Positions 6,560-32,323 of a stretch of DNA of 53,732 nucleotides are shown here, piece after piece. Source of the DNA: Candidatus Micrarchaeota archaeon. Lineage in GTDB: Archaea > Micrarchaeota > Micrarchaeia > Anstonellales > Bilamarchaeaceae. The notes below the pieces were generated by a model, which was given only the letters and a program-made list of their open reading frames with translations, did no database searches and had not been told where the DNA came from. The position numbers were made by a program, and so were the translations under genes. The DNA is taken from the NCBI GenBank assembly GCA_037440825.1, contig JBBITJ010000003.1:1-53732 (forward strand), written 5' to 3'. How positions within the stretch are numbered: the first letter of the stretch is position 1; the number at the start of each line of letters is the position of its first letter.

Positions 6560-6607
6560 CAAAGCACCTTTATTGAGCGATAAGGAATACCTATTCTGCT
6601 CGCATGC

Positions 6608-6629
6608 TTTTTATATATTATTATATAAT
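6608..6629. promoter_or_regulatory. AT-rich TATA-box region of the divergent promoter between leuS and the membrane-paralog operon
   Basis: 'tttttatatattattatataat' is the only AT-rich stretch in the 80-nt divergent intergenic region. It lies about 15-35 nt upstream of the ATG at 6643. Confidence 0.5.
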
Positions 6630-6642
6630 ACTTCTCGATAGC

Positions 6643-7839
6643 ATGCTTCCCGTACCGATGGCAGCGGCGCTTCTGGCGGCCTACCCGACTTTCCAGGACG
6701 CTCTCTCGGGCTATTTCACGGATGTGCTTCCGCTCATCCTCGCCTCTTTCGCAATAAGCCTGTTCGTAACCGCGCTCATGTACATGGCAGGCAGCGCACT
6801 GCAGTCGCAGGACTTGCTTGCATTGGGCAAGGACAACCTGGCCAACCTCTTCTTCTCCGCGATAATCGTGTTCATGTTCCTCGCGCTGTTCGCGATATTC
6901 CAGCAGTTCGCGTCAGCCATCGCGTGCGGCCAGCCGTGCGACCACCTCCAGGCCGCGTATTCGAGCGTCCTCATGCTGCGCTCCAAGCTGATGTCCCTAT
7001 ACTTCAACCTCTACTTCTACGAGCTCATATTCGGTTTCCTCTCCACGCTGGGCTTCTCCATTCCTCTTCCTGCGCTCGGTCCGGCGAGCCTGCTCGCATT
7101 CATCATCAACCTTCCCACCATTTCGTTCGCGCCCCTCTCGGGCCTCACTCCTCTTTCAAATGCGCACACCATAGTGGTCGAGGCGGTGGGAACCGCGCTC
7201 CTCGCCGTGCTGGCGAGGCAGGTGCTCCTCGAATTCGTGATGAAATACATGTTCGTCTTCCTCGTGATCGGCGCAGGGCTGCGCTCCATGTGGTTCACCC
7301 GCCGCACGGGCTCGAGCATACTCGCACTCGCCGCAGTCTCGTATTTCGTCTATCCGCTCGCCGTCCTTCTCTCCAACTACCTCATCTTCCAGGCGTACGA
7401 GCCCGCGAACTTCGGAGTCATACCTACCTCCATCGGCTTCTGCGAGGACTCGACCACCCTCGGATCGCTTTCCGTGATGTTCGCGAGCGAGCGCAGCAAC
7501 CTCTACAACGCGTCCATCCCCAAGTCCGAGACGAAATGGTACATGTTCTGGAACACGCTGGTTGACGGCGCGAACTACGTGGGCGAATCCGCCTCGATGA
7601 TGCTCAAGGTGCTCTGGTCGTTCAACATGAACCTCGCCTACCTGCTCATACTCTCGCCGATGGCGTTCTCCACTTTCCTGGACTTCCTGTTCATAGAGAT
7701 ACAGACCCAGGTGCAGTTCCTGGTGCTCGTGTTCGTGTGCTTCGTCACAGAGATAATAATCACGATAACGATGTACCGCGGCGTCGCGATGCTCATAGAA
7801 GGAGAATCCGAAATATTCGGAATAAGCAAGCTCATGTAA
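6643..7839 (+). CDS. polytopic membrane protein, paralog 1 of 6 (unknown family)
   Basis: About 9 hydrophobic helices. It carries the shared motifs 'LMYMAGSAL', 'LRSMWFTRRTGSS...YFVYP' and the tail 'GESEIFGISKLM'. The track start at 6604 would translate the TATA region, so I prefer the ATG at 6643 (6658 is also possible). Confidence 0.8.
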   Translation: MLPVPMAAALLAAYPTFQDALSGYFTDVLPLILASFAISLFVTALMYMAGSALQSQDLLALGKDNLANLFFSAIIVFMFLALFAIFQQFASAIACGQPCDHLQAAYSSVLMLRSKLMSLYFNLYFYELIFGFLSTLGFSIPLPALGPASLLAFIINLPTISFAPLSGLTPLSNAHTIVVEAVGTALLAVLARQVLLEFVMKYMFVFLVIGAGLRSMWFTRRTGSSILALAAVSYFVYPLAVLLSNYLIFQAYEPANFGVIPTSIGFCEDSTTLGSLSVMFASERSNLYNASIPKSETKWYMFWNTLVDGANYVGESASMMLKVLWSFNMNLAYLLILSPMAFSTFLDFLFIEIQTQVQFLVLVFVCFVTEIIITITMYRGVAMLIEGESEIFGISKLM

Positions 7840-7848
7840 GATGGTGAA

Positions 7849-8760
7849 ATGGCGTTCCTGTTCGAAACCCTTGTGCCGACAATCGGCTTCCTCATGGTGC
7901 TGATCATAATGCTCGCCTACGTTGGCGGCAAGATCTTCCGCATCCCGTCCTGGGAGGCGTACTTCAATGTGGAGCTCCACAACCTCGTGTTCGCGGTCCT
8001 GCTGCTGAGCGTAGCGTTCGCAGCGTACGAAGGGATGAACTCGCTCGCGTACGACGTAGTTGGCGCGAGCCCGGTGCAGGCGTCCATGTCCTTCCTCAAC
8101 AGGATAACGAACAAGGGCGTGCTTCCAATGTACAAGGACCTGCTCGGCATAGAGGCAGGGACCGCGATGAGCAACTCGTTCTACATCAGGATGGGGCCCG
8201 GAGTATGGTCCTACACCAACAAGATCGAGCCGGGCGCGGACGCGATCCTCTCCATGGTGAGGCTCATGAGCATGGGCCTCATAGTGATATACGGAAGCCT
8301 GAGCATCCAGTACATCGGGCTCAGCCTGGTGGATTTCGGGATGCCGCTCTCGCTCTCGCTCGGAGTGCTGCTCTTCATACTTCCCTCCACGAGGGAGGCG
8401 GGCGCGTTCCTCATGTGCTTCGCATTAGCGTTCCAGATAATATTCCCGTCGCTTTACGCGCTCAACCAGGTGATACTCGATGACATGGCGTGCGCCCGCG
8501 CGACTGCGGAAGGCAACGCGTGCGAGCCCTACGATGCGTATATTCCTGAAATCGCGCTCTTCGGTGTGCAGGCAAGGGGAGTTTCTTTCCTGTCCTACCT
8601 GGTCCCGCTGGCGAGCCTGGCGAACTTCGAGCTTCTGATTCCATTCATCAATGCAATGGCACACCTCACGCTGGTCTCGCTTTTCCTGCCGGCGCTCGTG
8701 CTCACGATAACGATAGCGTTCATAAACGCGCTCACCAAATACATACTGGGAAGGATATGA
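7849..8760 (+). CDS. polytopic membrane protein, paralog 2 of 6 (most divergent)
   Basis: A GGTGA SD lies 2 nt upstream of the ATG. It has multiple TM helices, the core 'LFILPSTREAGAF...QIIFP' and the tail 'ALTKYILGRI'. Confidence 0.75.
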   Translation: MAFLFETLVPTIGFLMVLIIMLAYVGGKIFRIPSWEAYFNVELHNLVFAVLLLSVAFAAYEGMNSLAYDVVGASPVQASMSFLNRITNKGVLPMYKDLLGIEAGTAMSNSFYIRMGPGVWSYTNKIEPGADAILSMVRLMSMGLIVIYGSLSIQYIGLSLVDFGMPLSLSLGVLLFILPSTREAGAFLMCFALAFQIIFPSLYALNQVILDDMACARATAEGNACEPYDAYIPEIALFGVQARGVSFLSYLVPLASLANFELLIPFINAMAHLTLVSLFLPALVLTITIAFINALTKYILGRI

Positions 8761-10166
8761 GACTCGCACTTTTCGCCCTGATGGCCGTTGCGGCCTCGTT
8801 CGCTGCGGAAATCCAGGAGTTCTACGAGCCCAGCAACCCCGATTCCCTCTATTTCGCGTGGGGCGTGCTCGCAGCAGGGGCGCTCACGCTGAGCATATTC
8901 CTTGCAGGAATAATCTACATGGCCGGCAATTTCCTGATGAACGAGAAGATCAAGGGGTGGGCGAAGGCGGAAGCGGTGGAAATCCTCTATTCAGGCGTCC
9001 TGCTCGCGGTGGTCGGCGCGTTCTACCTAACCGCGAACCAGGTCGCCAGTTCGCTCGTGTACAGCATAGACACGTACAGCGCTGACCTCGTGTGCAGCAC
9101 TTCGAATCCCTTGTTCAATACGTTCACCATGCATGGCGAGCCTGTTGATCTGGGCTACGCGCATCTTCCCTGCCACATGCGGGTAGCGAAGAATTTCCTC
9201 GCATCCATCTTCTACGAAACAGGGGGCTTCGTGAAGAGCGTCGGCGTTACCCATTCGTGGTACACCTACCTCTCATCGTTCTCGTTCGACTTCACTCCAG
9301 TGGGCACGACAACTTTCTTCTCCGGCGGGAGCTTCAACTTCGCCATATTTGGGTTCCTGAACGCGAAGAACAACGCGCTCTCCTTCCTTTTCGACAACGG
9401 GATAAAGGTGCTCACGCTCGTGCGCTTCCAGGAGGTGCTAATCAATTTCGTAGGCACCGCGCTCTTCCCCGTGCTTCTCATGGCCGGGCTGGTGCTGCGC
9501 ACGTTCATGCTCACCCGCCGCCTTGGAGGGCTTCTGATGGCCATGGCGATCTCGCTATACTACGTCTTCCCGGCGTTCTACGTGCTCGGCGACAGCGTGT
9601 ACACCTCCATCATCCTGGCAAACTACAACAACTCAGTTCCGCTGGAGAACAGGAGCGCGCTGGCGCAGATATTCACGGACTTCAACGCGATGCCCAAGAA
9701 GATAAACGATTCCTACCAGGAGAACATGGCGCTCGCCACCAACGGGAGCAACGCCTCCTCCGAATTCCTGAGCCAGATCGGGCTCCTCACGTCCACGACG
9801 CTGTGCAACAAGACCGCGGAAGAGGTGCAGAACTACACGAACCAGTACGGCAGCGTGACCGGCGCGAACCTGAGCGTGGTGTTGGATTCCTTTGGCTCTG
9901 AGAACCGCCTGCTCGGTAGCTGGCTTACGGACTCTTTCAGCAAGGGCGGCACGCCATGGTACCTGGGCGGAGGGGTGACTGACGCGGTCATGAACACCGC
10001 GAGCTTCAGGTCGATACTCACAGGCATAGACGTGCTCGCGAAAGCAGTATTCTTCTCCATGTTCTTTTCGTTCATATCCATATTCGCCACGATTGCCTCT
10101 GTCAAGTCCCTTTCCCCTATGCTGGGCGGGGACGTGGAGATAGCCGGGCTTACCCACCTCATATGA
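8757..10166 (+). CDS. polytopic membrane protein, paralog 3 of 6, with signal peptide and sequon-rich loop
   Basis: ATGA overlap with paralog 2. It has the signal peptide 'MRLALFALMAVAASFAAE', the motifs 'IIYMAGNFLMNEK' and 'LRTFMLTRRLGGL...YYVFP', a loop with many N-x-S/T sequons (NRS, NDS, NGS, NAS, NKT, NYT, NLS) and the tail 'GGDVEIAGLTHLI'. Confidence 0.8.
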   Translation: MRLALFALMAVAASFAAEIQEFYEPSNPDSLYFAWGVLAAGALTLSIFLAGIIYMAGNFLMNEKIKGWAKAEAVEILYSGVLLAVVGAFYLTANQVASSLVYSIDTYSADLVCSTSNPLFNTFTMHGEPVDLGYAHLPCHMRVAKNFLASIFYETGGFVKSVGVTHSWYTYLSSFSFDFTPVGTTTFFSGGSFNFAIFGFLNAKNNALSFLFDNGIKVLTLVRFQEVLINFVGTALFPVLLMAGLVLRTFMLTRRLGGLLMAMAISLYYVFPAFYVLGDSVYTSIILANYNNSVPLENRSALAQIFTDFNAMPKKINDSYQENMALATNGSNASSEFLSQIGLLTSTTLCNKTAEEVQNYTNQYGSVTGANLSVVLDSFGSENRLLGSWLTDSFSKGGTPWYLGGGVTDAVMNTASFRSILTGIDVLAKAVFFSMFFSFISIFATIASVKSLSPMLGGDVEIAGLTHLI

Positions 10167-10175
10167 TGTGAACCT

Positions 10176-11396
10176 ATGACCCCCTGCACTGCACAACGTG
10201 GTTTCCATTCGAGTGTTCTCGACTGTCTGTTGAACGTTGCGTTCAACATCCGGCCCCCGGTTCCGGGTTTCGGTCTCGCCAGCTTCGGGAAGCTCGCGTT
10301 CGCGTTCCTGCTCCTGGCTGCCATTGCCGGCGCGCAGGGATACGATCCTAATTACAACAACCCGGAAGATCTCAGCAAGACCGTGAACGAGAATATAGAA
10401 ATAATAAAGAATTCCTCCCTGATCGCGGCCTGCACCGCAGCTCCCGGCTCGCATGATTTCCAGACTTCCGTGCTGTCCAATTCGCTCCTCGCGCTGTTCA
10501 TAATGGCGATGGTCATAGGGCTCATGTACATGGCAGGGAACTTCCTCCAGGTGCAGAGCGTGCTCGTGCTCGCGAGGCAGGAGATAAACGAGTTCCTGAT
10601 AACCGCGCTCATCGTCGTGTTCTTCACCATGATAATCTCCGCGCCCACTTATTTCGGCATAGACCTTTTCGACCAGGCAACGACTTACAGCTACAAGATG
10701 CTCTACAAGGTCGGCTCGGTCTCGTCTGTGCTGGTGAGCGCGAACATCGTCCTCAATTCCATCTACACGATCTACATACCGTTCGGGCAGATAAGGAAGG
10801 CGCTCACGATGCAGCTTGGGCCCGCGCTGCGGCCCATAATAGACGGCGTTTCGTTCTCGCTCCAGTTCCTCATCACCACCTACGGCGAATGGACGGTGTT
10901 CGTGTTCATGTTCTGCTTCATCCAGCGTTGGTTCCTGCCATTCTTCTTCCCGCTCGGCCTGATAATGCGCTCATTCCCACAGACGCGCGGAGGGGGCAAC
11001 GCCCTCATCGCATTGTCCATAGCCCTCTCCACAATCTACCCGTTCATGTTCTTCGTGGATTCCGTGATCTTCGCGAAGCAGTTCCCCGAGGACACCAGCA
11101 TAGGCGCGTATTTCGAGCAGGCGGTGCGTTCGGTGTTCGCCGCGCTCGGAATCGGAGGCGTGGCCGCGGTGTTCTTCGGCTTCTCGCTCATATTCGTCTC
11201 GCCCATACTCGTGGGCGCGCTGCTGCTCATCTCATACTTGATGTTCGACGTCGGGTGGGAAGTCCTCCACCTGGTGATGATCTTCAGCATAATCCTGCCT
11301 GTATTGAACATATTCCTCACCCTCTCGTTCACGAGGGAGATATCGAAGCTGCTCGGGACGGAAATAAGCCTGGGGGCGTTCGCAAAGCTGATATGA
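10176..11396 (+). CDS. polytopic membrane protein, paralog 4 of 6, with unusual N-terminal extension
   Basis: The only in-frame ATG is at 10176. A 38-aa extension encoded by heptad arrays precedes the signal peptide 'KLAFAFLLLAAIAGAQG'. It carries the motifs 'LMYMAGNFLQVQS' and 'IMRSFPQTRGGGNA...STIYP' and the tail 'GTEISLGAFAKLI'. Confidence 0.8.
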   Translation: MTPCTAQRGFHSSVLDCLLNVAFNIRPPVPGFGLASFGKLAFAFLLLAAIAGAQGYDPNYNNPEDLSKTVNENIEIIKNSSLIAACTAAPGSHDFQTSVLSNSLLALFIMAMVIGLMYMAGNFLQVQSVLVLARQEINEFLITALIVVFFTMIISAPTYFGIDLFDQATTYSYKMLYKVGSVSSVLVSANIVLNSIYTIYIPFGQIRKALTMQLGPALRPIIDGVSFSLQFLITTYGEWTVFVFMFCFIQRWFLPFFFPLGLIMRSFPQTRGGGNALIALSIALSTIYPFMFFVDSVIFAKQFPEDTSIGAYFEQAVRSVFAALGIGGVAAVFFGFSLIFVSPILVGALLLISYLMFDVGWEVLHLVMIFSIILPVLNIFLTLSFTREISKLLGTEISLGAFAKLI

Positions 11397-11397
11397 C

Positions 11398-12453
11398 ATG
11401 GGATTCTACCTTCCGGAATACAAGCCCTTGATGGACACGGCTGTATGCCAGCCGGGCTTCAGCGAGAGCTTCTTCTATTTCCCGGACTGGGCGTCCACGT
11501 CCCTGGTCGCCCTGCTCGCGTCTGCGTTCATCCTTGCATTCCTGTACATGTTCGCCTCTATGTTCCAGAACCAGCAGAGCGTGGCGCGCGTGAAGATAGA
11601 GCTGTACGAGCTTATAGTCACAGCCGCGATATTCGCAGTCCTCTTCATGATGCTCAACGGCATGTGCAGCATCCAGACCGGATGGATATTCCCCGGCGCA
11701 GGGCACAACTCCAAGGTGCTCGGATGGGAGGACTGGAGCGGCAAGTCCATATACTATTCCTCTTTCAACTACCTGATGGAATTCGCCGATGACACGCTGA
11801 TAGTGATGAGCTACCAGTATCTCGGCTATGCGTTCATAGACTTCTTAACGAGCATGGAGATCTCCTCCACGCCCATGGGCATAGGGGCCACGATGAAGCC
11901 AACTTCCGGGCTGGGCGCGGTGGTGAAGCCGGTGCTCAACAACGCGTTCAGCGTCGAGATCCTGTCGGTGATAACCGCGCAGGCGCAGGTATACGTGATG
12001 GACTACGGCACGTATGGCATGCTGAAATACCTTCTGCCCCTGGCGCTCATAATGCGCAGCTTCACGCTCACGCGGCGCATAGGCGGCACGATAATCTCCA
12101 TCACCATTGTTTTCCTGTTCGTCTACCCGCTGCTCGTGATACCCTCGTACATGGTCGTTAACGACTCCCTGTTCGGTAGCATATCCAAGTACCTCCAGGG
12201 CGGGCAGTATGCAGGCGTGTGGGGGGCCAGCACCTACTTCTGGGCCGTTATAGAGATGATGTTCAAGTTCCTGTGGAGCCCGGACTTCCTCTTCGGCTAC
12301 GCGCTGCTCTTCATGCCGTTCATAGCCAAGATATTCATAGGAGGCGTGTTCATGCCCCTCTTCAACACGATAATACTCACGAACACCGCCAAGTACCTGT
12401 CCAGGTCGCTTGGAGAAGAGATAGATATAACAAACCTGACCAGGATGATTTAG
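11398..12453 (+). CDS. polytopic membrane protein, paralog 5 of 6
   Basis: The start is 1 nt after the paralog 4 stop. It carries the motifs 'FLYMFASMFQNQQ' and 'IMRSFTLTRRIGGT...LFVYP' and the tail 'GEEIDITNLTRMI'. Confidence 0.8.
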   Translation: MGFYLPEYKPLMDTAVCQPGFSESFFYFPDWASTSLVALLASAFILAFLYMFASMFQNQQSVARVKIELYELIVTAAIFAVLFMMLNGMCSIQTGWIFPGAGHNSKVLGWEDWSGKSIYYSSFNYLMEFADDTLIVMSYQYLGYAFIDFLTSMEISSTPMGIGATMKPTSGLGAVVKPVLNNAFSVEILSVITAQAQVYVMDYGTYGMLKYLLPLALIMRSFTLTRRIGGTIISITIVFLFVYPLLVIPSYMVVNDSLFGSISKYLQGGQYAGVWGASTYFWAVIEMMFKFLWSPDFLFGYALLFMPFIAKIFIGGVFMPLFNTIILTNTAKYLSRSLGEEIDITNLTRMI

Positions 12454-12482
12454 CATGACGGGCGTTTACACGAGTGATTTTG

Positions 12483-13484
12483 ATGGCTGATTGGGAAGCC
12501 CTGGCGATAATGGCCGCGTTCATTGCGGTGCTGGTGTCAGCCCTGCTGCTAATGCTCTCCCGCATACTGGACTTCAAGATCCTAGAGCAGTCCGCAAAGG
12601 CAGAGCTGGTCTTCGCGGCCAGCTCTGTAATACTTGTGATATTCCTGATTGGCGCGGTGAAATACGGCACCGACATAGGAAAGACCGTGTCAGCGAGCAT
12701 GTACCTGTACTCCTACCAGCACGTCGGTGAACTCCACTTCCTGAATGCCTCTGGGCAGGAGCAGGTGCTCGACACATCGATTTTCAGCAGCCCGGACTAC
12801 ACGCTCAACGAAATCGTGATACTCTACATGCGCTCGGTGATGTACTGCGCCGAATCAGTGGGCAATTCCGCGTTCTATGTCAGCCTCGCGGCGCACCAAA
12901 TATCCTCCTTCTCGCAGGACGTGTGGATGGCGTACCCTATAAGCGCATGGGCGTGGGGCGGCATCGCGCAGGCGGCTGACAACCTCCTCAACACATTCTA
13001 CTTCATGGAGCTTGTATATCGCATACAGATATACGTGATGAGGTTCATGGACGTGTTCTCCCTGAGCTACCTGCTTCCCATAGGCATACTGATGCGCTCC
13101 TTCCCTCCCACTAGGGCAGCAGGCGCGTACGTGCTCGCGTTCACCATCGGGGTATACCTGGTTTTCCCGATCGCTTACCTAGCTGCCGTTTTCTCTTCTC
13201 CATACCCTGCGCTCTGCGCAACCCCCCAGCTTCCGGAAATCCCGCAGGGCGAGAGCTCCAAGGCCGGCATACTGAGCCAGCTCGTGATGTGGTACCGCGC
13301 CTTCGAAGGAGACCTTCTGGATTTCGTCGACAAGTTCTCTGACTTCACCAACTCGCTGCTCATAAACCTGTGCTTCTTCCCGTTCCTAGCGTTCGCGATA
13401 ATGATAACGTTCGTGCAGTCGTCCAGCGGGCTGTTCGGAGCCAACGTGAGCGAAGTCGGCCGGGGGCTGATCAAGCTTATATGA
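12483..13484 (+). CDS. polytopic membrane protein, paralog 6 of 6
   Basis: ATG at 12483 (the track uses the GTG at 12474). It carries the motif 'LMRSFPPTRAAGAY...YLVFP' and the tail 'GANVSEVGRGLIKLI'. It is followed by a hairpin (cctagc-cgca-gctagg, 13487-13502) and a T-rich stretch. Confidence 0.8.
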   Translation: MADWEALAIMAAFIAVLVSALLLMLSRILDFKILEQSAKAELVFAASSVILVIFLIGAVKYGTDIGKTVSASMYLYSYQHVGELHFLNASGQEQVLDTSIFSSPDYTLNEIVILYMRSVMYCAESVGNSAFYVSLAAHQISSFSQDVWMAYPISAWAWGGIAQAADNLLNTFYFMELVYRIQIYVMRFMDVFSLSYLLPIGILMRSFPPTRAAGAYVLAFTIGVYLVFPIAYLAAVFSSPYPALCATPQLPEIPQGESSKAGILSQLVMWYRAFEGDLLDFVDKFSDFTNSLLINLCFFPFLAFAIMITFVQSSSGLFGANVSEVGRGLIKLI

Positions 13485-21100: not shown

Positions 21101-22726
21101 TTACCTCCTTCTCTTGTACACGAAGAGGTAGAATGCGACTGCGAGCACTGCAAATGCCACTCCCGCGTAAGTCGCCAGGACCGTCATGTCGTAGCTGACA
21201 TTGACCGTGACCCTTCCATCCTCGTAGCCGGTCTTCTTCACTGTAAGTGTGTATGTGCCCGGCTCGGCGAACCTGAGCGTCACCGTGCCGTTCTTCCCTG
21301 CGTACGTCTTTCCAGCAGCCGAGACTGTGAAATCATCCATGCGCTGGCCGTTCTCGTCAAGCACGCTTATTGTGAAATTCTTGTCCTCGGTCACGCTCCG
21401 GGGCGCATCCACGATCATGACGAACTTCTGTGCATTCTGGTCCCTGAACAGCACCACGTAAGTGAAGCCCTTGCTCTCCTGGCCCGCGCTGTCCGAAACT
21501 CTGCATTCCACGAAGACATTCCCGAATTCGTAGTTGTTCGGGTCAAAGATGTAGAACCAGTCGTTTCCTGAGACCTGCGCCATGTTCCACGTGCCGTTGT
21601 TCACCCTCACCGCGACCTGCGCGCCCGGATATTGCGAGAACACCCTTCCGCTCACGTTCACGACCTTGTACCCTATGCTCTCGCCGGTGAACGGCGAGTC
21701 TATCGTGCAGCCTCTGTCTACGACGTACGAGTATATCAGCCCGTCATAGGACCCGAAATAGAGCATGCCGCCGTAGAACGCTGGGTTGTGTACCCAGCCG
21801 TGCGCAGAGAACGCGATCACCACGTTCCCGTTCTTCGTGTCGACTATGTATATCTTGTTGTCGTTGCTCCCGGTTATGAGCATCTCCCTTCCCCCAAGGG
21901 AAGTGATTACCATGCTGCCCTGCACAGCTTCAGCAGTCTTCCTCTTCCAGATTAGTGTCCCGTTCTTGGAGTTGACTGCGTATATGTAGCCGTCGTTGCT
22001 CCCGAAATACACCACGTCGTTGGAGTATATGGGATCGGACATTATCCAGCCGCCCGTGTCGAACGTCCAGAGGATCTTTCCGGTGTATATGTTGACCGCA
22101 TTCATCTTGCCGTCGTTGCTGCCTATGTACACCACTCCCAGGTGGAATTCCGGCCTGGATTCCCAGAACGGGCTCACGCGCGTGCGGCTCCTCACGCTCC
22201 CGTTTATGTCCGCGACGACCAGCTCGTCAGAAGCGCCGTATATGAGCGTGTCGTTGAGCAGCAGTATGTCGGTGAGCGGCATATCGTTCTCGTGGATAAC
22301 CCACAGGAGCGTGCCTTCGTAGTCGTATTTCTTGACCCCCTTGTCCGTGGATATGTAGATGAATTCGGGCGAAGCCGCCATCCCGTAGATGGTCGTCTCG
22401 TTCACCTTATGCTGGATATTGCCGCTCCTGTCGAGTATTACTATGCGGGAATTGGATATGCCGACTATCTGGCTTCCCGGGCTTTCAAGCTCCTTGATTT
22501 TCTCCTCGACATACGTCCTCCACGAGATTATGCCGTTCTGCTGGTACGCGCAGTAGATGAATCCGTCGTAGGATGCGGCGACCACCTTGTCGCCGAAGAA
22601 AACCAGGTTGCTCTCTATGGGCCCGAACGTGAGCAGGCTCCAGCTCTGGCCGGCAAAGGATGCGGAAAGAAGAATGATGAATGCCAGAAAAAGGCGGTTG
22701 CGCGTTCCGAGTTCCCTGGCTGGCAT
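21101..22726 (-). CDS. PQQ-like beta-propeller repeat surface protein with C-terminal Ig/PEGA-like domain and tail anchor
   Basis: It has repeated 'DG.IY(A/I)V....G..(L/I)W' blades, 'GTYTLTVKKTGYEDGRVTVNV', a C-terminal TM helix plus 'KRRR', and the N-terminal anchor 'LFLAFIILLSASFAG'. The start is uncertain (22726 or 22777). The track start at 22882 overlaps rpl11. Confidence 0.75.
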   Translation of the reverse strand: MPARELGTRNRLFLAFIILLSASFAGQSWSLLTFGPIESNLVFFGDKVVAASYDGFIYCAYQQNGIISWRTYVEEKIKELESPGSQIVGISNSRIVILDRSGNIQHKVNETTIYGMAASPEFIYISTDKGVKKYDYEGTLLWVIHENDMPLTDILLLNDTLIYGASDELVVADINGSVRSRTRVSPFWESRPEFHLGVVYIGSNDGKMNAVNIYTGKILWTFDTGGWIMSDPIYSNDVVYFGSNDGYIYAVNSKNGTLIWKRKTAEAVQGSMVITSLGGREMLITGSNDNKIYIVDTKNGNVVIAFSAHGWVHNPAFYGGMLYFGSYDGLIYSYVVDRGCTIDSPFTGESIGYKVVNVSGRVFSQYPGAQVAVRVNNGTWNMAQVSGNDWFYIFDPNNYEFGNVFVECRVSDSAGQESKGFTYVVLFRDQNAQKFVMIVDAPRSVTEDKNFTISVLDENGQRMDDFTVSAAGKTYAGKNGTVTLRFAEPGTYTLTVKKTGYEDGRVTVNVSYDMTVLATYAGVAFAVLAVAFYLFVYKRRR

Positions 22727-22785
22727 TCCGCTTTTCGAAACGGGAAACCCAGAACTGCAAACTGCCTTTTCTTGCATGCTTGCCC

Positions 22786-23262
22786 TCATCCAGCCAGCAT
22801 CGAGTCGTACTTGCCTTCCTTGATCTCCTTCTCGACCTGCTTGGCATCCTTGGAATCCACTGTGACGCCCATGCTCATGCACGTGCCTATCACTTCGCGC
22901 ACCGTCTGCCTGAGCGTGCTGCCATAGCTCTTAGACTTCAGCCCTTTCGCGAGCTCCACTACGGCGGAGAACTCCACGTTGCCGACCTTGTCCTTGGTGC
23001 CTGAGCCTTTCTCTATCCCGGCAGCCTTCTTCACGAGCTCGCTGGTCGCAGGCGCGCCGACCGTTACAGTGAACGCCTTGGTCGCAGTGTCAACAACTAC
23101 CTTCACTGGCACCTTGAGTCCCGCGAACGCCTTGGTCTCCTCGTTTATCTTCGCTACGACCATGCCCACGTTGACGCCCAGCGGCGCAAGCCCCGGCCCG
23201 ATGGGCGGTCCTGCGGTCGCTTTCCCTCCGTCTACTATCGCATTCAATATTTTTTCCCCCAT
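22786..23262 (-). CDS. rpl11: 50S ribosomal protein L11 (uL11)
   Basis: It has 'GKATAGPPIGPGLAPLGVN' and the typical uL11 length. The ATG at 23262 is preferred over the TTG at 23271. Confidence 0.95.
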   Translation of the reverse strand: MGEKILNAIVDGGKATAGPPIGPGLAPLGVNVGMVVAKINEETKAFAGLKVPVKVVVDTATKAFTVTVGAPATSELVKKAAGIEKGSGTKDKVGNVEFSAVVELAKGLKSKSYGSTLRQTVREVIGTCMSMGVTVDSKDAKQVEKEIKEGKYDSMLAG

Positions 23263-24024: not shown

Positions 24025-24075
24025 GATTGTTTAGTGATTGATAAGTATTATAAACCGGATTCCAGAAAATCCTGC

Positions 24076-25011
24076 ATGCGAATCAGATTACAGACTCAAC
24101 AGTCCCAGGGGGCGAACTGGCTCAAGTACGGGGGCGCCATAGTCCTCGCGCTCGCGTTCCTCGTGTTCCTGGGCATCCTGCTTTTCTCCTCGGTCTCAGT
24201 CCCGATAATCGGGAGCAAGTGCGTCGCGATCGTGAACATCGACCAGGAGATAACGACGGAGAGCGTCCCTCCCACCCTTTTCAGCACCGCTGTGCCGGGC
24301 AGCGAGGAGATCGCATCATCGATAGCCGCGCTGGAAACTAGGGACGACGTGGGTTCGGTCGTGTTCGTAATGAACTCGCCGGGCGGCAGCGTCGTGGCGA
24401 CCAAGGAGATATACGAGGCCGTCAAGAACCTCAGCAAGCCCAAGGTCGCGTATTTCAGGGAAATCGCGGCTTCAGGCGCATATTACATTTCTACGGGCGC
24501 AGATTACATAGTAAGCGAGCCGGACGCGATAACCGGCAGCATAGGGGTCATAATGACCGTTACCGAGCTCAGCGGCCTTTTCGACAAGCTCGGAATAAAC
24601 TCCACTGCGATAAAGAGCGGGGAAAGCAAGGACATCGGCTCCCCTGAAAGGCCGATGACGGATAATGAGAAGCAGATACTCCAGGCGCTCGTGGACGAGA
24701 TCTTCGGGGAATTCAGGTCCATAGTGGTCGCCAACCGCGGCTCCAGGCTAGACATGGACAGGTTCGAGGAAATACTTGACGGAAGGATAGTGAGCGGCAG
24801 GCAGGCGAAGGCGATCGGGCTCGTGGACGCGCTCGGGAACAAGCGCGACGCGATAATGAAGGCGGCCGCGCTTGCAGGCATAGGCGATGAAGAGCCTTTG
24901 CTTTGCGAGATAGACACGAGTTCGCATAAAACGGGGCTATTCGATGTGCGCACCTATTTCGCGGGCATCCTCGCGCAGGATACCAAAAAGTTCAGCGTCA
25001 AGTACGAGTGA
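24076..25011 (+). CDS. sppA: signal peptide peptidase SppA (S49 family, 36K type)
   Basis: It has an N-terminal TM helix, then 'VFVMNSPGGSV' and 'AASGAYYIS' (Ser nucleophile region) and 'SIGV'. ATG at 24076 (the track uses the GTG at 24034). Confidence 0.85.
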   Translation: MRIRLQTQQSQGANWLKYGGAIVLALAFLVFLGILLFSSVSVPIIGSKCVAIVNIDQEITTESVPPTLFSTAVPGSEEIASSIAALETRDDVGSVVFVMNSPGGSVVATKEIYEAVKNLSKPKVAYFREIAASGAYYISTGADYIVSEPDAITGSIGVIMTVTELSGLFDKLGINSTAIKSGESKDIGSPERPMTDNEKQILQALVDEIFGEFRSIVVANRGSRLDMDRFEEILDGRIVSGRQAKAIGLVDALGNKRDAIMKAAALAGIGDEEPLLCEIDTSSHKTGLFDVRTYFAGILAQDTKKFSVKYE

Positions 25012-25369
25012 ATTGCTGGCGCTGCTGAAATTGGCGGCTCCGCTGGCAGTTGTCGCGATTTTCGTAGCTTCGCTCCTCTACCTCTACTCGATAATCAGCG
25101 GCTTTTTCCCGGAAACAGGCGAGTCCGCACAGCCGCCTATTTCCCCTCCGCCGCAGGCAGAATGCTCTGCTGGCGACAAGGCGGAATGTACGAGTTCCCA
25201 GGGCTGCCCCGGCACCAGGATGTGCCGCGAGGGGAAGTGGAGCGAGTGCATGGTGAAGAAGATATGCAGCCCTGGAGAGGAGCAGGGGTGCTTCATAGGC
25301 ACCTGCGCAACAGGCAAGCAGGTGTGCAACGCGTGCGGGACCGCGTACGAGAACTGCACGCAGACCTAG
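24944..25369 (+). CDS. membrane-anchored Cys-rich small protein
   Basis: It has the TM helix 'LAAPLAVVAIFVASLLYLYSII', a Pro-rich linker and a 12-Cys module ('ECSAGDKAECTSSQGCPGTRMCREGKWSEC...CSPGEEQGCFIGTCATGKQVCNACG'). The ATG at 24944 overlaps sppA by 68 nt, and there is an alternative TTG at 25013. Confidence 0.6.
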   Translation: MCAPISRASSRRIPKSSASSTSELLALLKLAAPLAVVAIFVASLLYLYSIISGFFPETGESAQPPISPPPQAECSAGDKAECTSSQGCPGTRMCREGKWSECMVKKICSPGEEQGCFIGTCATGKQVCNACGTAYENCTQT

Positions 25370-25435
25370 TTCCGGCGCTTCCTGCCCGCACGCTGAACTA
25401 GGCTTTTTAAAGATTCCCGGCTTAACTTTAGAACG

Positions 25436-26059
25436 ATGGCAAAGGCATTCATATTCTCTATAGACGCGTTTGTCGCATTCACGTTCGTGCTCATAATGAT
25501 ACATTCCCTCATCTTCATCGCCGCGGTCCCGTCCAGCTATTACGGCGGGCTCACGCAGGCTAATTACCTTGCGAGGGACACCGTAGCGGCGCTCGCAGCC
25601 GCTAACTCGAGCAAGCTCATATGCGACCCCGCCGATTCCGGCTACAACGAGTGCGTTTCGGACTATTCGCAAGTAACTCTCCTCGACTACCTGATGAGGC
25701 ACAGGGACGCTGACACCATAAGGGCGCACGTGGGCGCGCTCATTCCGGAGCAATACGGCTACGCGCTCGAGCTCTGGGATTCAGGCACCGGATCATGGAC
25801 AACGCTCTACGACAGCGCGGATTACGATTATTCCGAGGATCCGCACGCGAAGTCCTACCACAAGCTCATGGTATCTTCGCATTCGCTCTTCTTCGGCTAC
25901 GACAGCGACGGCGCCCGCGGTTTCCACATCCCCTACTGCTACATAACCTGCAACCCCGGCTCCTACGGCGGCTGCCCCACTCCCTGCGACGAGCCGGTTT
26001 CCAATTACGACGAAGGGCAGGCGGACCTCGGGCTGGTGAGGCTCACGGTTTACAGGTGA
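25436..26059 (+). CDS. type IV prepilin-like (class III signal peptide) protein 1
   Basis: The N-terminus 'MAKAFIFSIDAFVAFTFVLIMI' has a short charged leader, a hydrophobic helix and an acidic residue at about +6. The TATA-like 'ctttttaaag' lies about 27 nt upstream. Confidence 0.65.
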   Translation: MAKAFIFSIDAFVAFTFVLIMIHSLIFIAAVPSSYYGGLTQANYLARDTVAALAAANSSKLICDPADSGYNECVSDYSQVTLLDYLMRHRDADTIRAHVGALIPEQYGYALELWDSGTGSWTTLYDSADYDYSEDPHAKSYHKLMVSSHSLFFGYDSDGARGFHIPYCYITCNPGSYGGCPTPCDEPVSNYDEGQADLGLVRLTVYR

Positions 26060-26063
26060 ATGC

Positions 26064-27587
26064 ATGGCCCGGAAATCCAGGGGATTCTTCTTCGTGCTGA
26101 TCTCGTTCATACTGCTGCTCTATATATTCCTCTACCTCGCGGCTTGGATAAGCGCGATAGAGATATCGGAAAAGGCATCATCCGAGAGGTTCAGGACCGC
26201 GTCGGTTTCAGGCATAATGTCCCAGCTCACCAAGGAGCGGCTTGACAATTTCTTCGACATCGCCGGCTATTACGCCCTGTTCAAGATAAACAACCATTCG
26301 TCGGATCCCGCGCACCCCCTCCAATACGACCCTGCGGACGAGCTGCGATACCTGAGGGGCGCGTTCTTCGGCTGCGTTTTCAACGGCACCTCAGATGATT
26401 TCGAATCTGTTTCGCTGGATTACTCGGACGATGAAAAAGGCACGTACACGTTCTACGCATGGATGGACAGCCTGAACCGCACGCTTTCGCAGGCTGGGCT
26501 GGAGGTGGTCTCGTTCAGCGTGTCCAACGAGAATTTCACGCAGCTGGACCACGTGACGTTCAACGCGTCCATGGACGTTTCCATATACGTGAGGGACCGG
26601 CTTTCCACGGTTTCAGTGAACAGGAGCTTCAGCCTAAGCCGCCAGTTCAACGTCACCGGATTCCCTGACCCGATGATCACGAGGGAATACAGGCTCATAG
26701 AGCCCTCGTCGACTGTGGAGCGGCAGATATTCTTCAGGAACATATCTCTTTCGAACCTCACTCCGATAAACGTGATCAACGGCACGCAGGGCCAGGGCTT
26801 TTTCTACGGCCCAATGATCGCTGCTGCTGACGTGACCTCCACCAACCCGATACCATCCCAGAGGTGGCAGTACATCCTCGTGGGCAGCTTCGAAGACATA
26901 GTGGACGTGGCGAATTACGGCCAGTTCGGCGCGTACATCGTCACGAGCGCTGTGGAGTATAACAGCTACGACGGCTGCAGTCCGAGCGAGGAAGGGACTT
27001 TCAACGCCATCCAGAACAGAACCTCTTCGTGCAACGTGACGATCGCTTACCCTACTGACAGGCCGTTCGCGGTCATCGAAGGTCTTGATATCAATTCGTT
27101 CCGCGGCCCGGGAGGGGAACACCACGCGCTTTTCATAGCAGAGCGCTCGGTAGAGCAGGTGGCGAACAACCCTGCGGACAAGCTGGGCGAAGTGGTGGCT
27201 TACGACATCGAGGACCTGAGGGACGCCATGATATGCACATATTTCTTCCCGTCCGGCCGCGGCCCTTCGTATGCGCAGCGGCTCTCGTCTGATGCGATTT
27301 CCCTCTCAAGCGCCTCTTTCGGCATGGAGACGTTCCTGCTGGGCATGTGGGCAGGAGGGAGCCAGCTTCCAGATTACGAGAATTACAGCCGCGTGGACTG
27401 GGAATTCTTCAACATGCTGGAGGGAGTGAAGTTGCGGGGCATGGCTGGATGCAAGAGCCCCTCAATGTGCGCCGCTGCAGTAGGCTCTGACGCACAGGTG
27501 GGGCAGTTCAGGCTCACGGATGAATCCATAAGAGAATACGGCGCAGGGGGCATCGCCTGCAACGACGGCCGAGCGGGGTGCGACTAA
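26064..27587 (+). CDS. large pilin-like/adhesin-like protein 2 (507 aa) with prepilin-like N-terminus
   Basis: It starts 'MARKSRGFFFVLISFILLLYIFLY' and has many sequons in the body. It is 4 nt downstream of protein 1. Confidence 0.65.
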   Translation: MARKSRGFFFVLISFILLLYIFLYLAAWISAIEISEKASSERFRTASVSGIMSQLTKERLDNFFDIAGYYALFKINNHSSDPAHPLQYDPADELRYLRGAFFGCVFNGTSDDFESVSLDYSDDEKGTYTFYAWMDSLNRTLSQAGLEVVSFSVSNENFTQLDHVTFNASMDVSIYVRDRLSTVSVNRSFSLSRQFNVTGFPDPMITREYRLIEPSSTVERQIFFRNISLSNLTPINVINGTQGQGFFYGPMIAAADVTSTNPIPSQRWQYILVGSFEDIVDVANYGQFGAYIVTSAVEYNSYDGCSPSEEGTFNAIQNRTSSCNVTIAYPTDRPFAVIEGLDINSFRGPGGEHHALFIAERSVEQVANNPADKLGEVVAYDIEDLRDAMICTYFFPSGRGPSYAQRLSSDAISLSSASFGMETFLLGMWAGGSQLPDYENYSRVDWEFFNMLEGVKLRGMAGCKSPSMCAAAVGSDAQVGQFRLTDESIREYGAGGIACNDGRAGCD

Positions 27588-28063
27588 TGAGTTCCCTGTT
27601 CCCAGTTTCGAGTTTTGCGGCGAAACCAGAGATCCCCGGTCCGAAACCGCGCAATGCATGCCTGAAGGGACAGTCGTCCCTGGAAATGCTCGTAACCGTG
27701 GCCGCGCTGCTCGCATATTCCCTGCCTATCGTGCTCCTGGTATTCTCGTTTTCCTACATGAAGCTGGAGGACGTGGCGCTCACGCAGGGGCGCGCCACAG
27801 TCCAGCAGCTCTCCGACGGCGTGAATTCCGTCTATCTCCAAGGAGAGGGCGCAAGGCACTCCATGCTCATAGACCTTCCGTCAGGCACGAGGAATCTCAC
27901 CGTGTCAGGAAAGACGATAACTCTCTACATTTCAGCCACAGGCGGCACATATTCCATTTCCCACCCTATTTTCGCCAACGCGAGCAGCTTCACGATTTCG
28001 GACCGCGTGGGGCTCATAAAAATCACGATGAGGATGGAAGGTGGACAGGTGATTCTGGAATGA
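27587..28063 (+). CDS. type IV prepilin-like protein 3 with long leader
   Basis: The taATG overlaps the upstream stop. A 27-aa leader ends in 'LKGQ', followed by 'SSLEMLVTVAALLAYSLPIVLLVF' (Glu at +5). No in-frame ATG lies closer to the hydrophobic helix. Confidence 0.65.
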   Translation: MSSLFPVSSFAAKPEIPGPKPRNACLKGQSSLEMLVTVAALLAYSLPIVLLVFSFSYMKLEDVALTQGRATVQQLSDGVNSVYLQGEGARHSMLIDLPSGTRNLTVSGKTITLYISATGGTYSISHPIFANASSFTISDRVGLIKITMRMEGGQVILE

Positions 28064-28653
28064 TTCCCAACCTCCCAATGGCATCAAAGCGCGGTTCCCA
28101 GTTCCCAGTTCCCAGTTCCGGCGCGATACCCAAAACTCAAAACAGGAAACCCCTTGTATCTACCAGCACTATGCCGGCACTGCGAGGCCAGGTGGCCACG
28201 GAGTTCTTCGTCTATTCCGCAGTCTTCCTCATAATCGTGCTGGCAGCGTACTTCAGCATATTCTTCGTGCAGAGCGCGGAAGTGGCGAACAAGGAAGCCC
28301 TCTACGTGAAATGGTTCGGCGAGCGCTTCGCATCGAACCTGAACACAGCGATGAGCAGCGGCGAGGGATTCTCGATGAAGATGGCGTTCTCTCCATACAT
28401 CCTGGAGAAGCCCTACTCGGTGTACATAAAGCCTGCACGCGCGGGCAGGAACGGCTTCGTGTTCATAACGTGGAGCGCGGGCAACGTGACCTATTCTTAC
28501 CCCATAGGTAACATGAACATAGGCGCAGGCGACAGCTGCGTGCACGCCATATCTTCCCCTGACGGCGCATACTACGAGATCACGAGCGCGAGAGGGGAGC
28601 TCTGGTTCGAGAACGACGGCAGCTCTATAACCATCACACAGGGATGCACATGA
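28060..28653 (+). CDS. type IV prepilin-like protein 4 (long-leader start; alternative short-leader start at 28171)
   Basis: ATGA overlap at 28060. The sequence '...MPALRGQVATEFFVYSAVFLIIVLAAYF' has Glu at +5. The ATG at 28171 would give a classical 7-aa leader. Confidence 0.6.
   Translation: MIPNLPMASKRGSQFPVPSSGAIPKTQNRKPLVSTSTMPALRGQVATEFFVYSAVFLIIVLAAYFSIFFVQSAEVANKEALYVKWFGERFASNLNTAMSSGEGFSMKMAFSPYILEKPYSVYIKPARAGRNGFVFITWSAGNVTYSYPIGNMNIGAGDSCVHAISSPDGAYYEITSARGELWFENDGSSITITQGCT
28094..28121 (+). repeat. tandem heptanucleotide repeat (GTTCCCA)x3 plus a partial copy
   Basis: 'gttcccagttcccagttcccagttccgg' is read directly from the sequence. It is followed at 28129-28153 by an inverted degenerate array 'cccaaaactcaaaacaggaaacccc'. 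Confidence 0.9.
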
Positions 28654-29162
28654 AAGTTTCCAGTCTCCAGTCTCCTGTTTCGAAGTGCGGATTTAAGAAA
28701 GGCCAGTACTTCAGCTTCGACGCGATAGTCGCTTCGGTGCTCTTCGCGCTGACATTCATAACCCTGGTGAGCTACTGGTTCAGCGTGAAGTCCGGCTTGG
28801 AATCCAAGGATGAGGAGATGCTCAAGGAGGCCGCGAGGATAAGCGACGCGATGCTCAACCCTGGCCTGTTCCAGAACTCTTACAGCGATCCGCGCGTCAG
28901 CCTGAGCCGCATAAAGTCGTTCGAGGGCAAGAGCCAGGATGAGCTGAAGGAGATGTTCAACACCCCCTACAATATCTCCCTGTTGGTGGATACGGAAGCG
29001 GGCACCCGCATAGCGGCCGTGGGCCCTGATCCGACCGACCCGGCATATTCATACATATTCTCCAATGTTGTCAACACAGCCAAGATGCGGAGGATCGTCG
29101 TAATCCAGGTCAACGAGAGCTACGAAACTCCTGCTGCGCTGGATATCTACCTGTACAACTAG
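28644..29162 (+). CDS. type IV prepilin-like protein 5 with long leader
   Basis: There are ATGs at 28644 and 28650, and the latter forms an ATGA overlap with the upstream stop. The leader ends in 'FKKGQ', followed by 'YFSFDAIVASVLFALTFITLVSYWF'. Confidence 0.65.
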   Translation: MHMKVSSLQSPVSKCGFKKGQYFSFDAIVASVLFALTFITLVSYWFSVKSGLESKDEEMLKEAARISDAMLNPGLFQNSYSDPRVSLSRIKSFEGKSQDELKEMFNTPYNISLLVDTEAGTRIAAVGPDPTDPAYSYIFSNVVNTAKMRRIVVIQVNESYETPAALDIYLYN

Positions 29163-31663: not shown

Positions 31664-32323
31664 ATGCGAAAAATCCTCGCGCTCTTTCTTGCGCTCGCGT
31701 TTCTGTCCTTCGCGGACTACGATTTGTGCTCCAGCTGCAATGGCGAGGCGCCGAAGGAATGCACTGGCCTTCCAGTAAAGGAAGTTCCCTGCTCCATTTC
31801 CTCGGCTTCTTTCTCATGCCAGCAGATAGTCACTACGGAAGGCTGGATACTCTGTCCCCTATGCCCTGACGGCTACGATTTCGCGAGGTGCGAGTCCAGC
31901 TGGCTCTTCGGACTCTACAAGATATCTTATTGCGTCCAGAACTACGGAGTCGCGTGCGGCGCGTACTGCGAGCAGTCTGACAACGTTATTTCGCGCTCCG
32001 AATGCTCTATCAATTCATCCAAGAAATGCTGCACCATCCCCACAAACGAGATCCAGCTCGTCTCCCCGCAGAGCGGCTCAACCCATCCGAGGAACGAGAC
32101 TGCCTCATTCACAGTGAATTACACCGGGGCGATAACCAACCTCTCAATTGATTTCGGGGACGGAAGCATAGAATGGAAGCAGCCGAACGTGAACAAGCTC
32201 ACAATCTTCGAGCACAACTACACTTCCACGGGCGCATTCAACGTTAGCGCGTGGGCGTATTCCTGCTGGAACTGCTCGTACAAGTACAATTCCACCTTTT
32301 CCATCATCATAAACGTCCACTAG
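31664..32323 (+). CDS. secreted Cys-rich protein with C-terminal PKD domain
   Basis: It has the signal peptide 'MRKILALFLALAFLSFA', a module with about 16 Cys, and the PKD signature 'FTVNYTGAITNLSIDFGDGS...HNYTSTGAFNVSAWA'. Confidence 0.7.
   Translation: MRKILALFLALAFLSFADYDLCSSCNGEAPKECTGLPVKEVPCSISSASFSCQQIVTTEGWILCPLCPDGYDFARCESSWLFGLYKISYCVQNYGVACGAYCEQSDNVISRSECSINSSKKCCTIPTNEIQLVSPQSGSTHPRNETASFTVNYTGAITNLSIDFGDGSIEWKQPNVNKLTIFEHNYTSTGAFNVSAWAYSCWNCSYKYNSTFSIIINVH

Follow-up and report, generated by a model that had tools for sequence, protein, structure and literature searches.

The sequence analyzed here, referred to below as the window, is the entire 53.7-kb contig JBBITJ010000003.1 (53,732 nt) of a Candidatus Micrarchaeota archaeon (assembly GCA_037440825.1). 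Five consecutive genes between positions 25436 and 29162 of the window, hereinafter P1 to P5, probably constitute one operon encoding five different type IV pilin-like proteins, the putative substrates of an archaeal class III signal peptidase. An earlier note on this DNA described the five genes as coupled, and all five open reading frames (ORFs) were indeed identified in this region with tight coupling between them: P1 and P2 are separated by 4 nt, P2 and P3 overlap at TAATG (the start ATG of P3 is shared with the stop codon of P2), P3 and P4 overlap at ATGA, and P4 and P5 overlap by 4–10 nt. A Shine-Dalgarno-like GGTG is present ahead of P2, of P3, and of the upstream P4 start, and the public gene call for P3 gives the same 158 aa. 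There are precedents for class III signal peptide pilins whose assembly machinery is encoded at another locus, and type IV pili have been reported in this phylum; what is new is the module itself, five unannotated families in a fixed order that are widespread. No paper describing the five-gene module was found in the literature search.

Related loci were gathered via the P2 family and are designated by the letter L and a number. They originate from 23 P2 homologs, 28 loci of GTDB species, 24 metagenome loci, and individual contigs, with flanks of up to 10 kb. The synteny comparison that had been proposed as a check showed that the five families recur in an unchanged order in approximately 38 related loci, i.e., in every locus long enough to show it, including 31 loci in which a P1 ortholog lies directly upstream of P2. 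The synteny of the module holds down to 27–35% identity of P2, and L034 represents a distant GC-rich copy. The P2 family contains 527 representatives (E ≤ 1e-3 among 1.84 billion proteins), and every named one belongs to Micrarchaeota; the metagenome-assembled genomes that gave the P2 homologs are almost all labeled Micrarchaeota or Micrarchaeia, and two are labeled "ainarchaeum," probably Iainarchaeum. The recurrent neighbors of the module across the loci are CarS, SppA, a MiaB-like radical-SAM gene, DnaG, a CBS protein, TFIIB, CorA, and PGK.

Characteristically, all five proteins have a basic leader that terminates in [KR][GA] and precedes a hydrophobic stretch of approximately 22 residues. 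In the orthologs (28–31 distinct sequences per family), position -2 is occupied by K or R and position -1 by G or A. Gln+1 and Glu+5 are invariant in P3 (n = 28), and Q+1, A+3, E+5, and Y+9 in P4 (n = 30). S+4, D+6, and F+8 are invariant in P1 (FxFSxDA, n = 31), and GQYFSFDA is nearly invariant in P5 (n = 30), with Asp+6 being fully so. The P2 orthologs have an invariant G followed by FFF and contain no D or E between +1 and +10. Thus, the presence of Glu+5 in two of the proteins (P3 and P4) and of Asp+6 in two others (P1 and P5), noticed previously in the window, turned out to be conserved throughout the respective families.

A relaxed version of the motif together with a hydrophobic stretch was found in 112 of the 125 module ORFs, which were defined by BLAST homology clusters independently of the motif, whereas only 10 of the 474 other ORFs of the same loci contain it. 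The signature is enriched in the module far beyond chance, and the earlier description of the N-termini as class III-like, with [KR][GA] preceding a hydrophobic helix, holds for the orthologs as well. The 10 off-module ORFs include four cases of an internal CarS helix, one P4 ortholog overlooked by BLAST clustering (L003, 6400–6882), and three extra pilin-like genes. The motif used by FlaFind 1.2 is [KRDE][GA][ALIFQMVED][ILMVTAS] (PMC4307647). In the window, it is present together with a hydrophobic stretch in P1 (KAFI), P3 (KGQS), and P4 (RGQV), and among the orthologs in 29/31 P1, 28/28 P3, and 30/30 P4 proteins. When the orthologs were scanned singly, the Pfam family PF04021 (Class_IIIsignal, QxSxExxxL) was matched by 12/30 members of P4 (best E 0.015; the next family had 3 members) and was the commonest Pfam match of P3 (3/26 members, best E 0.005). 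None of these matches reached the gathering score, and neither P3 nor P4 of the window was among the matching members.

The proteins share their N-termini and little else. In hhalign comparisons between the five families, the similarity is confined to the N-terminal 20–30 residues or so (68% probability for P3–P4, 43% for P1–P5), and no similarity among the families was observed after removal of the first 32 residues. The possibility that the five genes are paralogs was therefore ruled out. AlphaFold models were obtained for P5 and P2. The P5 model (13-sequence alignment, mean predicted local distance difference test, pLDDT, 82.4) contains a disordered leader, a helix at residues 23–68 (46 residues), and a small alpha/beta head that includes a four-stranded sheet. 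For P2, the model (23 sequences, pLDDT 84.9, predicted template modeling score 0.76) starts with a helix at residues 5–52 (48 residues) that is followed by a large, confident globular alpha/beta domain. Both predicted architectures are of the pilin-like "lollipop" type, with globular folds that have no solved relatives. Taken together, the conserved [KR][GA] junction, the Gln+1/Glu+5 pair, the recurring sub-threshold matches to PF04021, and the modeled shape of P5 and P2 support the assignment of class III (type IV prepilin-like) signal peptides to the five proteins, as far as sequences and models go.

Markers of an extracytoplasmic location were found in three of the proteins. P2 contains 13 N-X-S/T sequons, in agreement with its earlier description as a sequon-rich protein of 507 aa; this corresponds to 2.6 sequons per 100 aa vs. 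0.35 per 100 aa in the cytoplasmic proteins of the window. It also has five Cys residues that are invariant in the alignment of homologs, P1 has two invariant Cys residues, and conserved Cys residues are present in P4. The sequon density of P2 and the conserved Cys residues of P1, P2, and P4 fit an extracytoplasmic location of these three proteins, as judged from their sequences.

Several observations weigh against the assignment of the five proteins to type IV pilins. First, their N-termini deviate in part from the canonical signal. P2 (RGFF) and P5 (KGQY) lack the strict FlaFind motif in the window because of an aromatic residue (Phe or Tyr) at +2, and only 2/31 P2 and 0/30 P5 orthologs have it, although positions -2, -1, and +1 and the hydrophobic stretch do fit; a FlaFind-type prediction, also proposed as a check, is thus positive at the level of the motif for P1, P3, and P4 and negative for P2 and P5. 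P1 and P5 have Asp+6 instead of the canonical Glu+5, and the motif is in part presupposed by the regular expressions with which the ortholog tables were extracted. The segment in front of the helix, previously characterized as short and basic, is basic in all five proteins, yet it is not short in P3 (29 residues, with no alternative canonical start ahead of KGQ) and probably not in P4 (7 or 44 residues), these leaders being unusually long in the window; the P5 leader has 18–20 residues. Minimal leaders (MKGQ, MKAQ) are found in many orthologs. Second, matches to known families and solved structures are lacking. No Pfam or NCBIfam model scored above threshold for any of the five in scans of the curated libraries, and PDB-sequence profile searches with P1, P3, P4, and P5 produced chance matches only. 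Among the latter, the ankyrin matches of P3 are sums of weak repeats and were discarded, and a homolog search with the P3 sequence returned P3 itself only. The structure models cover two of the five proteins, P2 and P5. Modeling had been suggested as a further check, and it yielded the long N-terminal helix and globular head; a match to pilins was not obtained, since Foldseek searches of PDB found nothing significant for P2 (best E 6.7e-3, TM ≤ 0.12) and neither a significant match nor any solved pilin for P5.

Third, genes of the assembly machinery are missing in cis. Pfam scans of the 47 ORFs of the window found no T2SSE/FlaI, T2SSF/FlaJ, or Peptidase_A24 domain, and tblastn and phmmer searches with Micrarchaeota A24 and TadC proteins returned nothing in it. 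The earlier statement that no PilB/FlaI ATPase, PilC/FlaJ platform, or PibD/FlaK peptidase is encoded in the 53.7 kb is therefore correct. The cluster is stand-alone elsewhere as well: no assembly ATPase was found in any locus flank (up to 10 kb), including those of the longer among the 38 or so loci, and flanking machinery is rare, with platform genes near one locus (L025) and A24 genes in two genomes. FlaI/PilB-type ATPase candidates collected from all flanks with a Walker-A regular expression were rejected, as they proved to be only HerA, the A-type ATP synthase, and a small kinase.

These same observations could be explained if the N-termini were ordinary, uncleaved type II signal anchors of a surface complex (envelope, S-layer-associated, or cell-contact) that is unrelated to type IV machinery, with the likeness to prepilins being convergent. 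Such anchors would account for the lack of assembly genes in cis in the window and in nearly all related loci, for a neighborhood of housekeeping genes (CarS, SppA, the radical-SAM gene, and DnaG) instead of a pilus locus, for Pfam matches that all stay below threshold, for the lack of structural matches to pilins, and for the departure of P2 and P5 from the strict FlaFind motif. However, a plain anchor needs neither an invariant small residue at -1 nor Gln+1 nor an acidic residue at +5 or +6 within the hydrophobic helix, yet these are kept in at least 30 divergent orthologs and in four families. Furthermore, PF04021 recurs as the top match, the predicted helices are approximately 46–48 and not 20 residues long, and pilin sets located away from the machinery are normal in archaea (PMC4858521). 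We consider simple signal anchors unlikely.

The absence of machinery in cis left two options in the earlier note, either that the cluster is served in trans or that it works with unrecognized partners, and the first of them is the better one and is well supported. An A24 peptidase is encoded within 10 kb of the module in L008 (34.4 bits, gathering score 26.5) and in L003/L004 (25.2 bits in L003, just under the gathering score); both the L008 and L003 proteins have a weak archaeal A24 C-terminal domain. In L025 (18013–21513, reverse strand), two T2SSF/TadC genes (E 9e-14 and 1e-17) are followed by a gene for a 199-aa canonical pilin located 5.5 kb from the module. The junction of this pilin reads VRG then QAAMEYLMTYGW, and the protein has weak N-terminal similarity to the P3 and P4 proteins of the module. 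In the published Micrarchaeota genome Mia14, two type IV pilus systems and one FlaK-like peptidase were described, and seven genes with class III signals form a run beside the ATPase and TadC genes (PMC5498576). More generally, ATPase/TadC modules of archaea often rely on pilins whose genes are located in trans (PMC4858521). It is the A24 genes near the L003 and L008 modules, the two TadC genes and the pilin near the L025 module, and these published data that favor service in trans.

Additional pilin-like genes were observed in two of these loci. In L003 (125–1868; also in L004), two of them encode proteins with the junctions SKG then QAVFDTLVAL and MRG then QISTIDALSMF, with Asp near +5/+6; they adjoin the genes for the A24 peptidase and for a site-2 protease (Peptidase_M50) and are located 2.5 kb upstream of the module. 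In L025, an extra stand-alone P3-like pilin gene (5806–6231, forward strand; PF04021 E 0.001) adjoins a gene of the TraB/PrgY family. An upstream gene of unassigned family in the TadC region of L025 runs off the end of the locus, and an ATPase gene may lie beyond it.

If the five proteins are type IV pilin-like, a plausible sequence of events can be outlined. Judging from the basic leaders, the products would insert into the membrane in an N-in/C-out orientation via the hydrophobic N-terminal segment, and the leader would be cut after [KR][GA] by a prepilin peptidase of the A24 family (PibD/FlaK/EppA type) whose gene lies elsewhere. The mature N-terminal helices would then form the packed core of a type IV filament, driven by an ATPase and a TadC platform likewise supplied from elsewhere. 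Within such a filament, the set would act most likely as a minor-pilin or priming/tip complex and not as the bulk of the filament. This role is favored by the lack of relationship among the globular domains, by the fixed gene order of the operon, and by the absence of an acidic helix residue from the large P2; P2 is also predicted to be rich in glycosylation and stabilized by disulfides. The five genes therefore probably encode minor pilins or a tip complex, and the system to which these would belong is of a known type. P2, previously proposed as a tip or adhesin-type protein, is a candidate for this subunit and may occupy a distal, possibly adhesive position. The probable role of the whole would be adhesion of small episymbiotic archaea to surfaces or host cells.

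Alternatively, P3 or P4 could be the polymerizing subunit of a short structure. GspG–K are the pseudopilins of the type II secretion system (T2SS), and the ComGC–GG sets are the Com pilins. By analogy with both, five pilin-like genes, one of them large and devoid of Glu+5, might build a short pseudopilus, i.e., an uptake or secretion structure of the bindosome, Com, or T2SS kind with P3 or P4 as the main polymerizing subunit. The canonical Q1/E5 termini and the mature size of 130–154 aa of P3 and P4, together with the lack of a small Flp/EpdE-like major pilin gene in the window, agree with this proposal, as does the reliance of DPANN archaea on the import of host metabolites and DNA (PMC5498576). 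Nevertheless, in no locus is the module linked to genes for transporters or substrate-binding proteins, structural similarity to GspK/I/J or to Com pilins was not found, and a short and a long structure fit the data alike. A pseudopilus is, in our opinion, a rather improbable function of the module. The archaeal clade 1 systems are known to combine at least five minor pilins with small stand-alone major pilins (PMC4858521).

Immediately upstream of P1 are two genes that the earlier note regarded as parts of the same unit (Table 1). The first one encodes the signal peptide peptidase SppA, as confirmed by matches above the curated cutoffs of both PF01343 (Peptidase_S49, E = 7e-43, 146.7 bits, cutoff 24.9) and TIGR00706 (196 bits, cutoff 155.45). 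The second one encodes a transmembrane-anchored protein of 141 aa, in which 12 Cys residues were counted as noticed before, and which has no Pfam or NCBIfam match. SppA is located directly upstream of the module and co-oriented with it in only approximately 21 of the 38 loci, and elsewhere its place is taken by PGK, CorA, or TFIIB. A homologous small Cys-rich gene is present at the same position in approximately 13 of the 38 loci, including the window, whose copy was overlooked by BLAST clustering. One clade (L005, L012, L014, L016–L019, L033, and L040) retains the module without SppA and the Cys-rich gene, and SppA was accordingly rejected as an obligate partner. Thus, both genes are frequent neighbors, possibly co-transcribed with the module, and not its defining parts; that SppA belongs to the unit is doubtful, and the 12-Cys protein is possibly an accessory protein.

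Table 1. Genes of the five-gene module and the two genes upstream of it in the window
Feature	Coordinates	Strand	Basis
SppA (peptidase S49)	24034..25011	+	Pfam Peptidase_S49, TIGR00706
Membrane-anchored 12-Cys protein, 141 aa, start codon uncertain	24944..25369	+	ORF, Cys count; between SppA and P1
P1, 207 aa, pilin-like	25436..26059	+	MAKA leader, then FIFSIDAFVAF (Asp+6)
P2, 507 aa, large subunit	26064..27587	+	MARKSRG leader, then FFFVLISF
P3, 158 aa	27587..28063	+	29-residue leader ending in CLKG, then QSSLEMLVTV (Gln+1, Glu+5)
P4, 197 aa (ATG 28060) or 160 aa (ATG 28171)	28060..28653	+	Leader ending in ALRG, then QVATEFFVYSAVFL (Gln+1, Glu+5); junction read as ALRG then QVATEFF
P5, 172 aa, or 170 aa (ATG 28650)	28644..29162	+	Leader ending in FKKG, then QYFSFDAIVASV (Gln+1, Asp+6); junction read as FKKG then QYFSFDA

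In the second option of the earlier note, unrecognized partners would act in place of the canonical machinery, and the six-paralog membrane operon was named there as a candidate. This array (window 6604–13484, forward strand) encodes six polytopic membrane proteins of 303–469 aa in tandem, and SppA and the Cys-rich protein might act together with it. Its members share the motifs YMxG, LRSFPxTRxxG, and, at the C-terminus, GLxKLI. The array recurs as a block of four to six genes in L024 (7–5632), L028 (2095–9454, reverse strand), L044 (2328–9326, reverse strand), and L049 (36–4941). It is immediately adjacent to the module, in divergent orientation, in L028 and L044 and lies within approximately 4–12 kb of it in L024, L049, and the window. 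This proximity and the co-oriented SppA immediately upstream in approximately 21 loci speak for a partnership. However, the array is near the module in these five loci only, and no copy of it is present within the 10-kb flanks of the remaining 33 or so; its proximity follows a conserved synteny block (the array, c54, an RNA ligase, and further genes up to CarS and SppA) and not the module; and the proteins resemble neither T2SSF/FlaJ nor any entry of Pfam or PDB. The array was thus rejected as a TadC/FlaJ-like platform, and the evidence for its partnership with the module is weak. In addition, SppA is missing from a whole module-bearing clade, and canonical TadC and A24 genes do exist in relatives that carry the module. 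We find the replacement of the canonical machinery by unrecognized partners the least likely of the explanations considered. Almost as improbable is a broader version, in which the module would form the core of a Micrarchaeota-specific host-contact organelle with an unrecognized platform (the array being the candidate), the tip that binds the host would be P2 with its novel fold, and a new class of pilin-like proteins would be defined by the "FSxDA" N-termini with Asp+6.

The long leaders of the window are associated with short repeats. The upstream start of P4 (ATG 28060) is favored by its Shine-Dalgarno-like motif, and the leader is then 44 residues long. The leader-coding DNA of three genes holds tandem 7-nt units (GTYYCSN, forward strand): 27591–27611 in P3 (GTTCCCT/GTTCCCA/GTTTCGA), 28094–28121 in P4 (three copies of GTTCCCA, with GTTCCGG as the fourth unit), and 28656–28683 in P5 (GTTTCCA/GTCTCCA/GTCTCCT/GTTTCGA). 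The 10-mer GTTYCSAGTT occurs 8 times in the window vs. 0.34 expected. In the closest relative, L059 (62% identity of P2), the leaders are short and the tracts are absent; comparable tracts occur elsewhere in related genomes (L037, 4034–4061; L040, 14737–14764; L017, 11887–11907). The long leaders are likely translated, because the insertions keep the frame from the coupled start codons. The tracts are possibly a slippage-prone or regulatory element. Phase variation by slipped-strand mispairing was considered and is not favored, as the tracts have only 3–4 units, are all in frame, are absent from L059, and have similar counterparts elsewhere.

Internal duplications in the leader regions were observed in several related loci. 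The segment NLKAQVA, which contains the cleavage site, is present twice in the P4 leader of L024 (approximately 11934–12010), and the P3 leader of L026 (11538–11725) contains an upstream pseudo-copy, MKGQSSIDL. In L028, such duplications are located in the leaders of both P3 (11579–11695) and P5 (12656–12808), the latter with 7-aa repeats rich in Q, S, and P (PATRSQQ). The gene junctions of the operon look like hot spots for small duplications.

By gene content, the window is archaeal, as it encodes ribosomal protein L11, CDP-archaeol synthase, archaeal DnaG, LonB, LeuRS, SerRS, and PPDK. Two further probable surface proteins are encoded on either side of the module: a PQQ/beta-propeller protein of 593 aa that carries a CarboxypepD_reg-like domain and has a membrane anchor at its C-terminus (21101–22882, reverse strand) and a 219-aa Cys-rich protein with a PKD domain (31664–32323, forward strand). 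Surface proteins with PQQ/beta-propeller- and PKD-type domains are reported to be expanded in Micrarchaeota (PMC5498576).

Micrarchaeota are ultrasmall archaea attached to other archaea, and how the host is recognized and held is the wider question to which the module relates. Type IV pili have been suspected of a role in host contact in Micrarchaeota (PMC5498576), and in the ultrasmall bacteria Saccharibacteria, which are analogous to Micrarchaeota, such pili drive episymbiosis (PMC12206443). The module supplies five concrete candidate subunits for a host-contact apparatus, including the large P2 with its putative abundance of glycosylation sites. With more than 500 sequence clusters in the P2 family, it is among the most conserved surface-protein gene sets of the phylum, and every public copy of its proteins is annotated as "hypothetical." It also reveals two conserved N-terminal variants that FlaFind-like predictors would miss, namely, Asp+6 with an aromatic residue at +2/+3 and the acid-free GFFFVL.

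Among known systems, the module resembles the Epd or "clade 1/system 1" minor pilins of Methanococcus maripaludis (EpdA, EpdB, and EpdC) and the MIA14_0254–0260 run of class III-signal genes in Mia14, in which different small proteins are encoded by adjacent genes. The Epd/system 1 minor pilins correspond to arCOG05055, arCOG05053, and arCOG06584. The likeness is one of features: a basic leader, Gly or Ala at -1, Gln+1, Glu+5 (that of P3 and P4 in the module), and a hydrophobic helix are common to them. Sets of the Epd type are processed by an A24 peptidase, their machinery may be encoded elsewhere, and each clade 1 system includes at least five minor pilins (PMC4858521). Unlike the Epd and MIA14 sets, the module is located apart from ATPase and TadC genes and among housekeeping genes in every locus, two of its families use Asp+6 with aromatic residues at +2/+3 (QYFSFDA and FIFSIDA), and none of its proteins has an above-threshold Pfam or NCBIfam match.

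A second parallel is provided by the bacterial tip complexes GspH-I-J-K of T2SS and FimU-PilV-PilW-PilX-PilE with PilY1 of type IVa pili, which are likewise encoded by operons of four to five dissimilar pilin-like proteins and are expected to prime assembly and to display an adhesin at the tip. The gene layout of the module agrees with that of such complexes, as its five families are unrelated past the N-terminus and the 507-aa P2 has no D or E at +1 to +10; like GspK, P2 is far larger than the other members and lacks an acidic residue in the N-terminal helix. The parallel is in logic only: no homology of the GspK/GspI/GspJ type was detected by Foldseek against PDB (P2 and P5) or by PDB sequence profiles, the module belongs to an archaeon, which has one membrane only, and the bacterial operons are normally located in or beside the machinery genes. 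A precedent for pilin genes that lie apart from the machinery is found in Haloferax volcanii, in which the pilins PilA1–6 are encoded at loci other than those of the ATPase and platform PilB3-C3 and still cooperate with them (PMC4858521). In contrast to PilA1–6, which are paralogous major pilins encoded by scattered single genes, the module comprises five unrelated families in an operon of fixed order.

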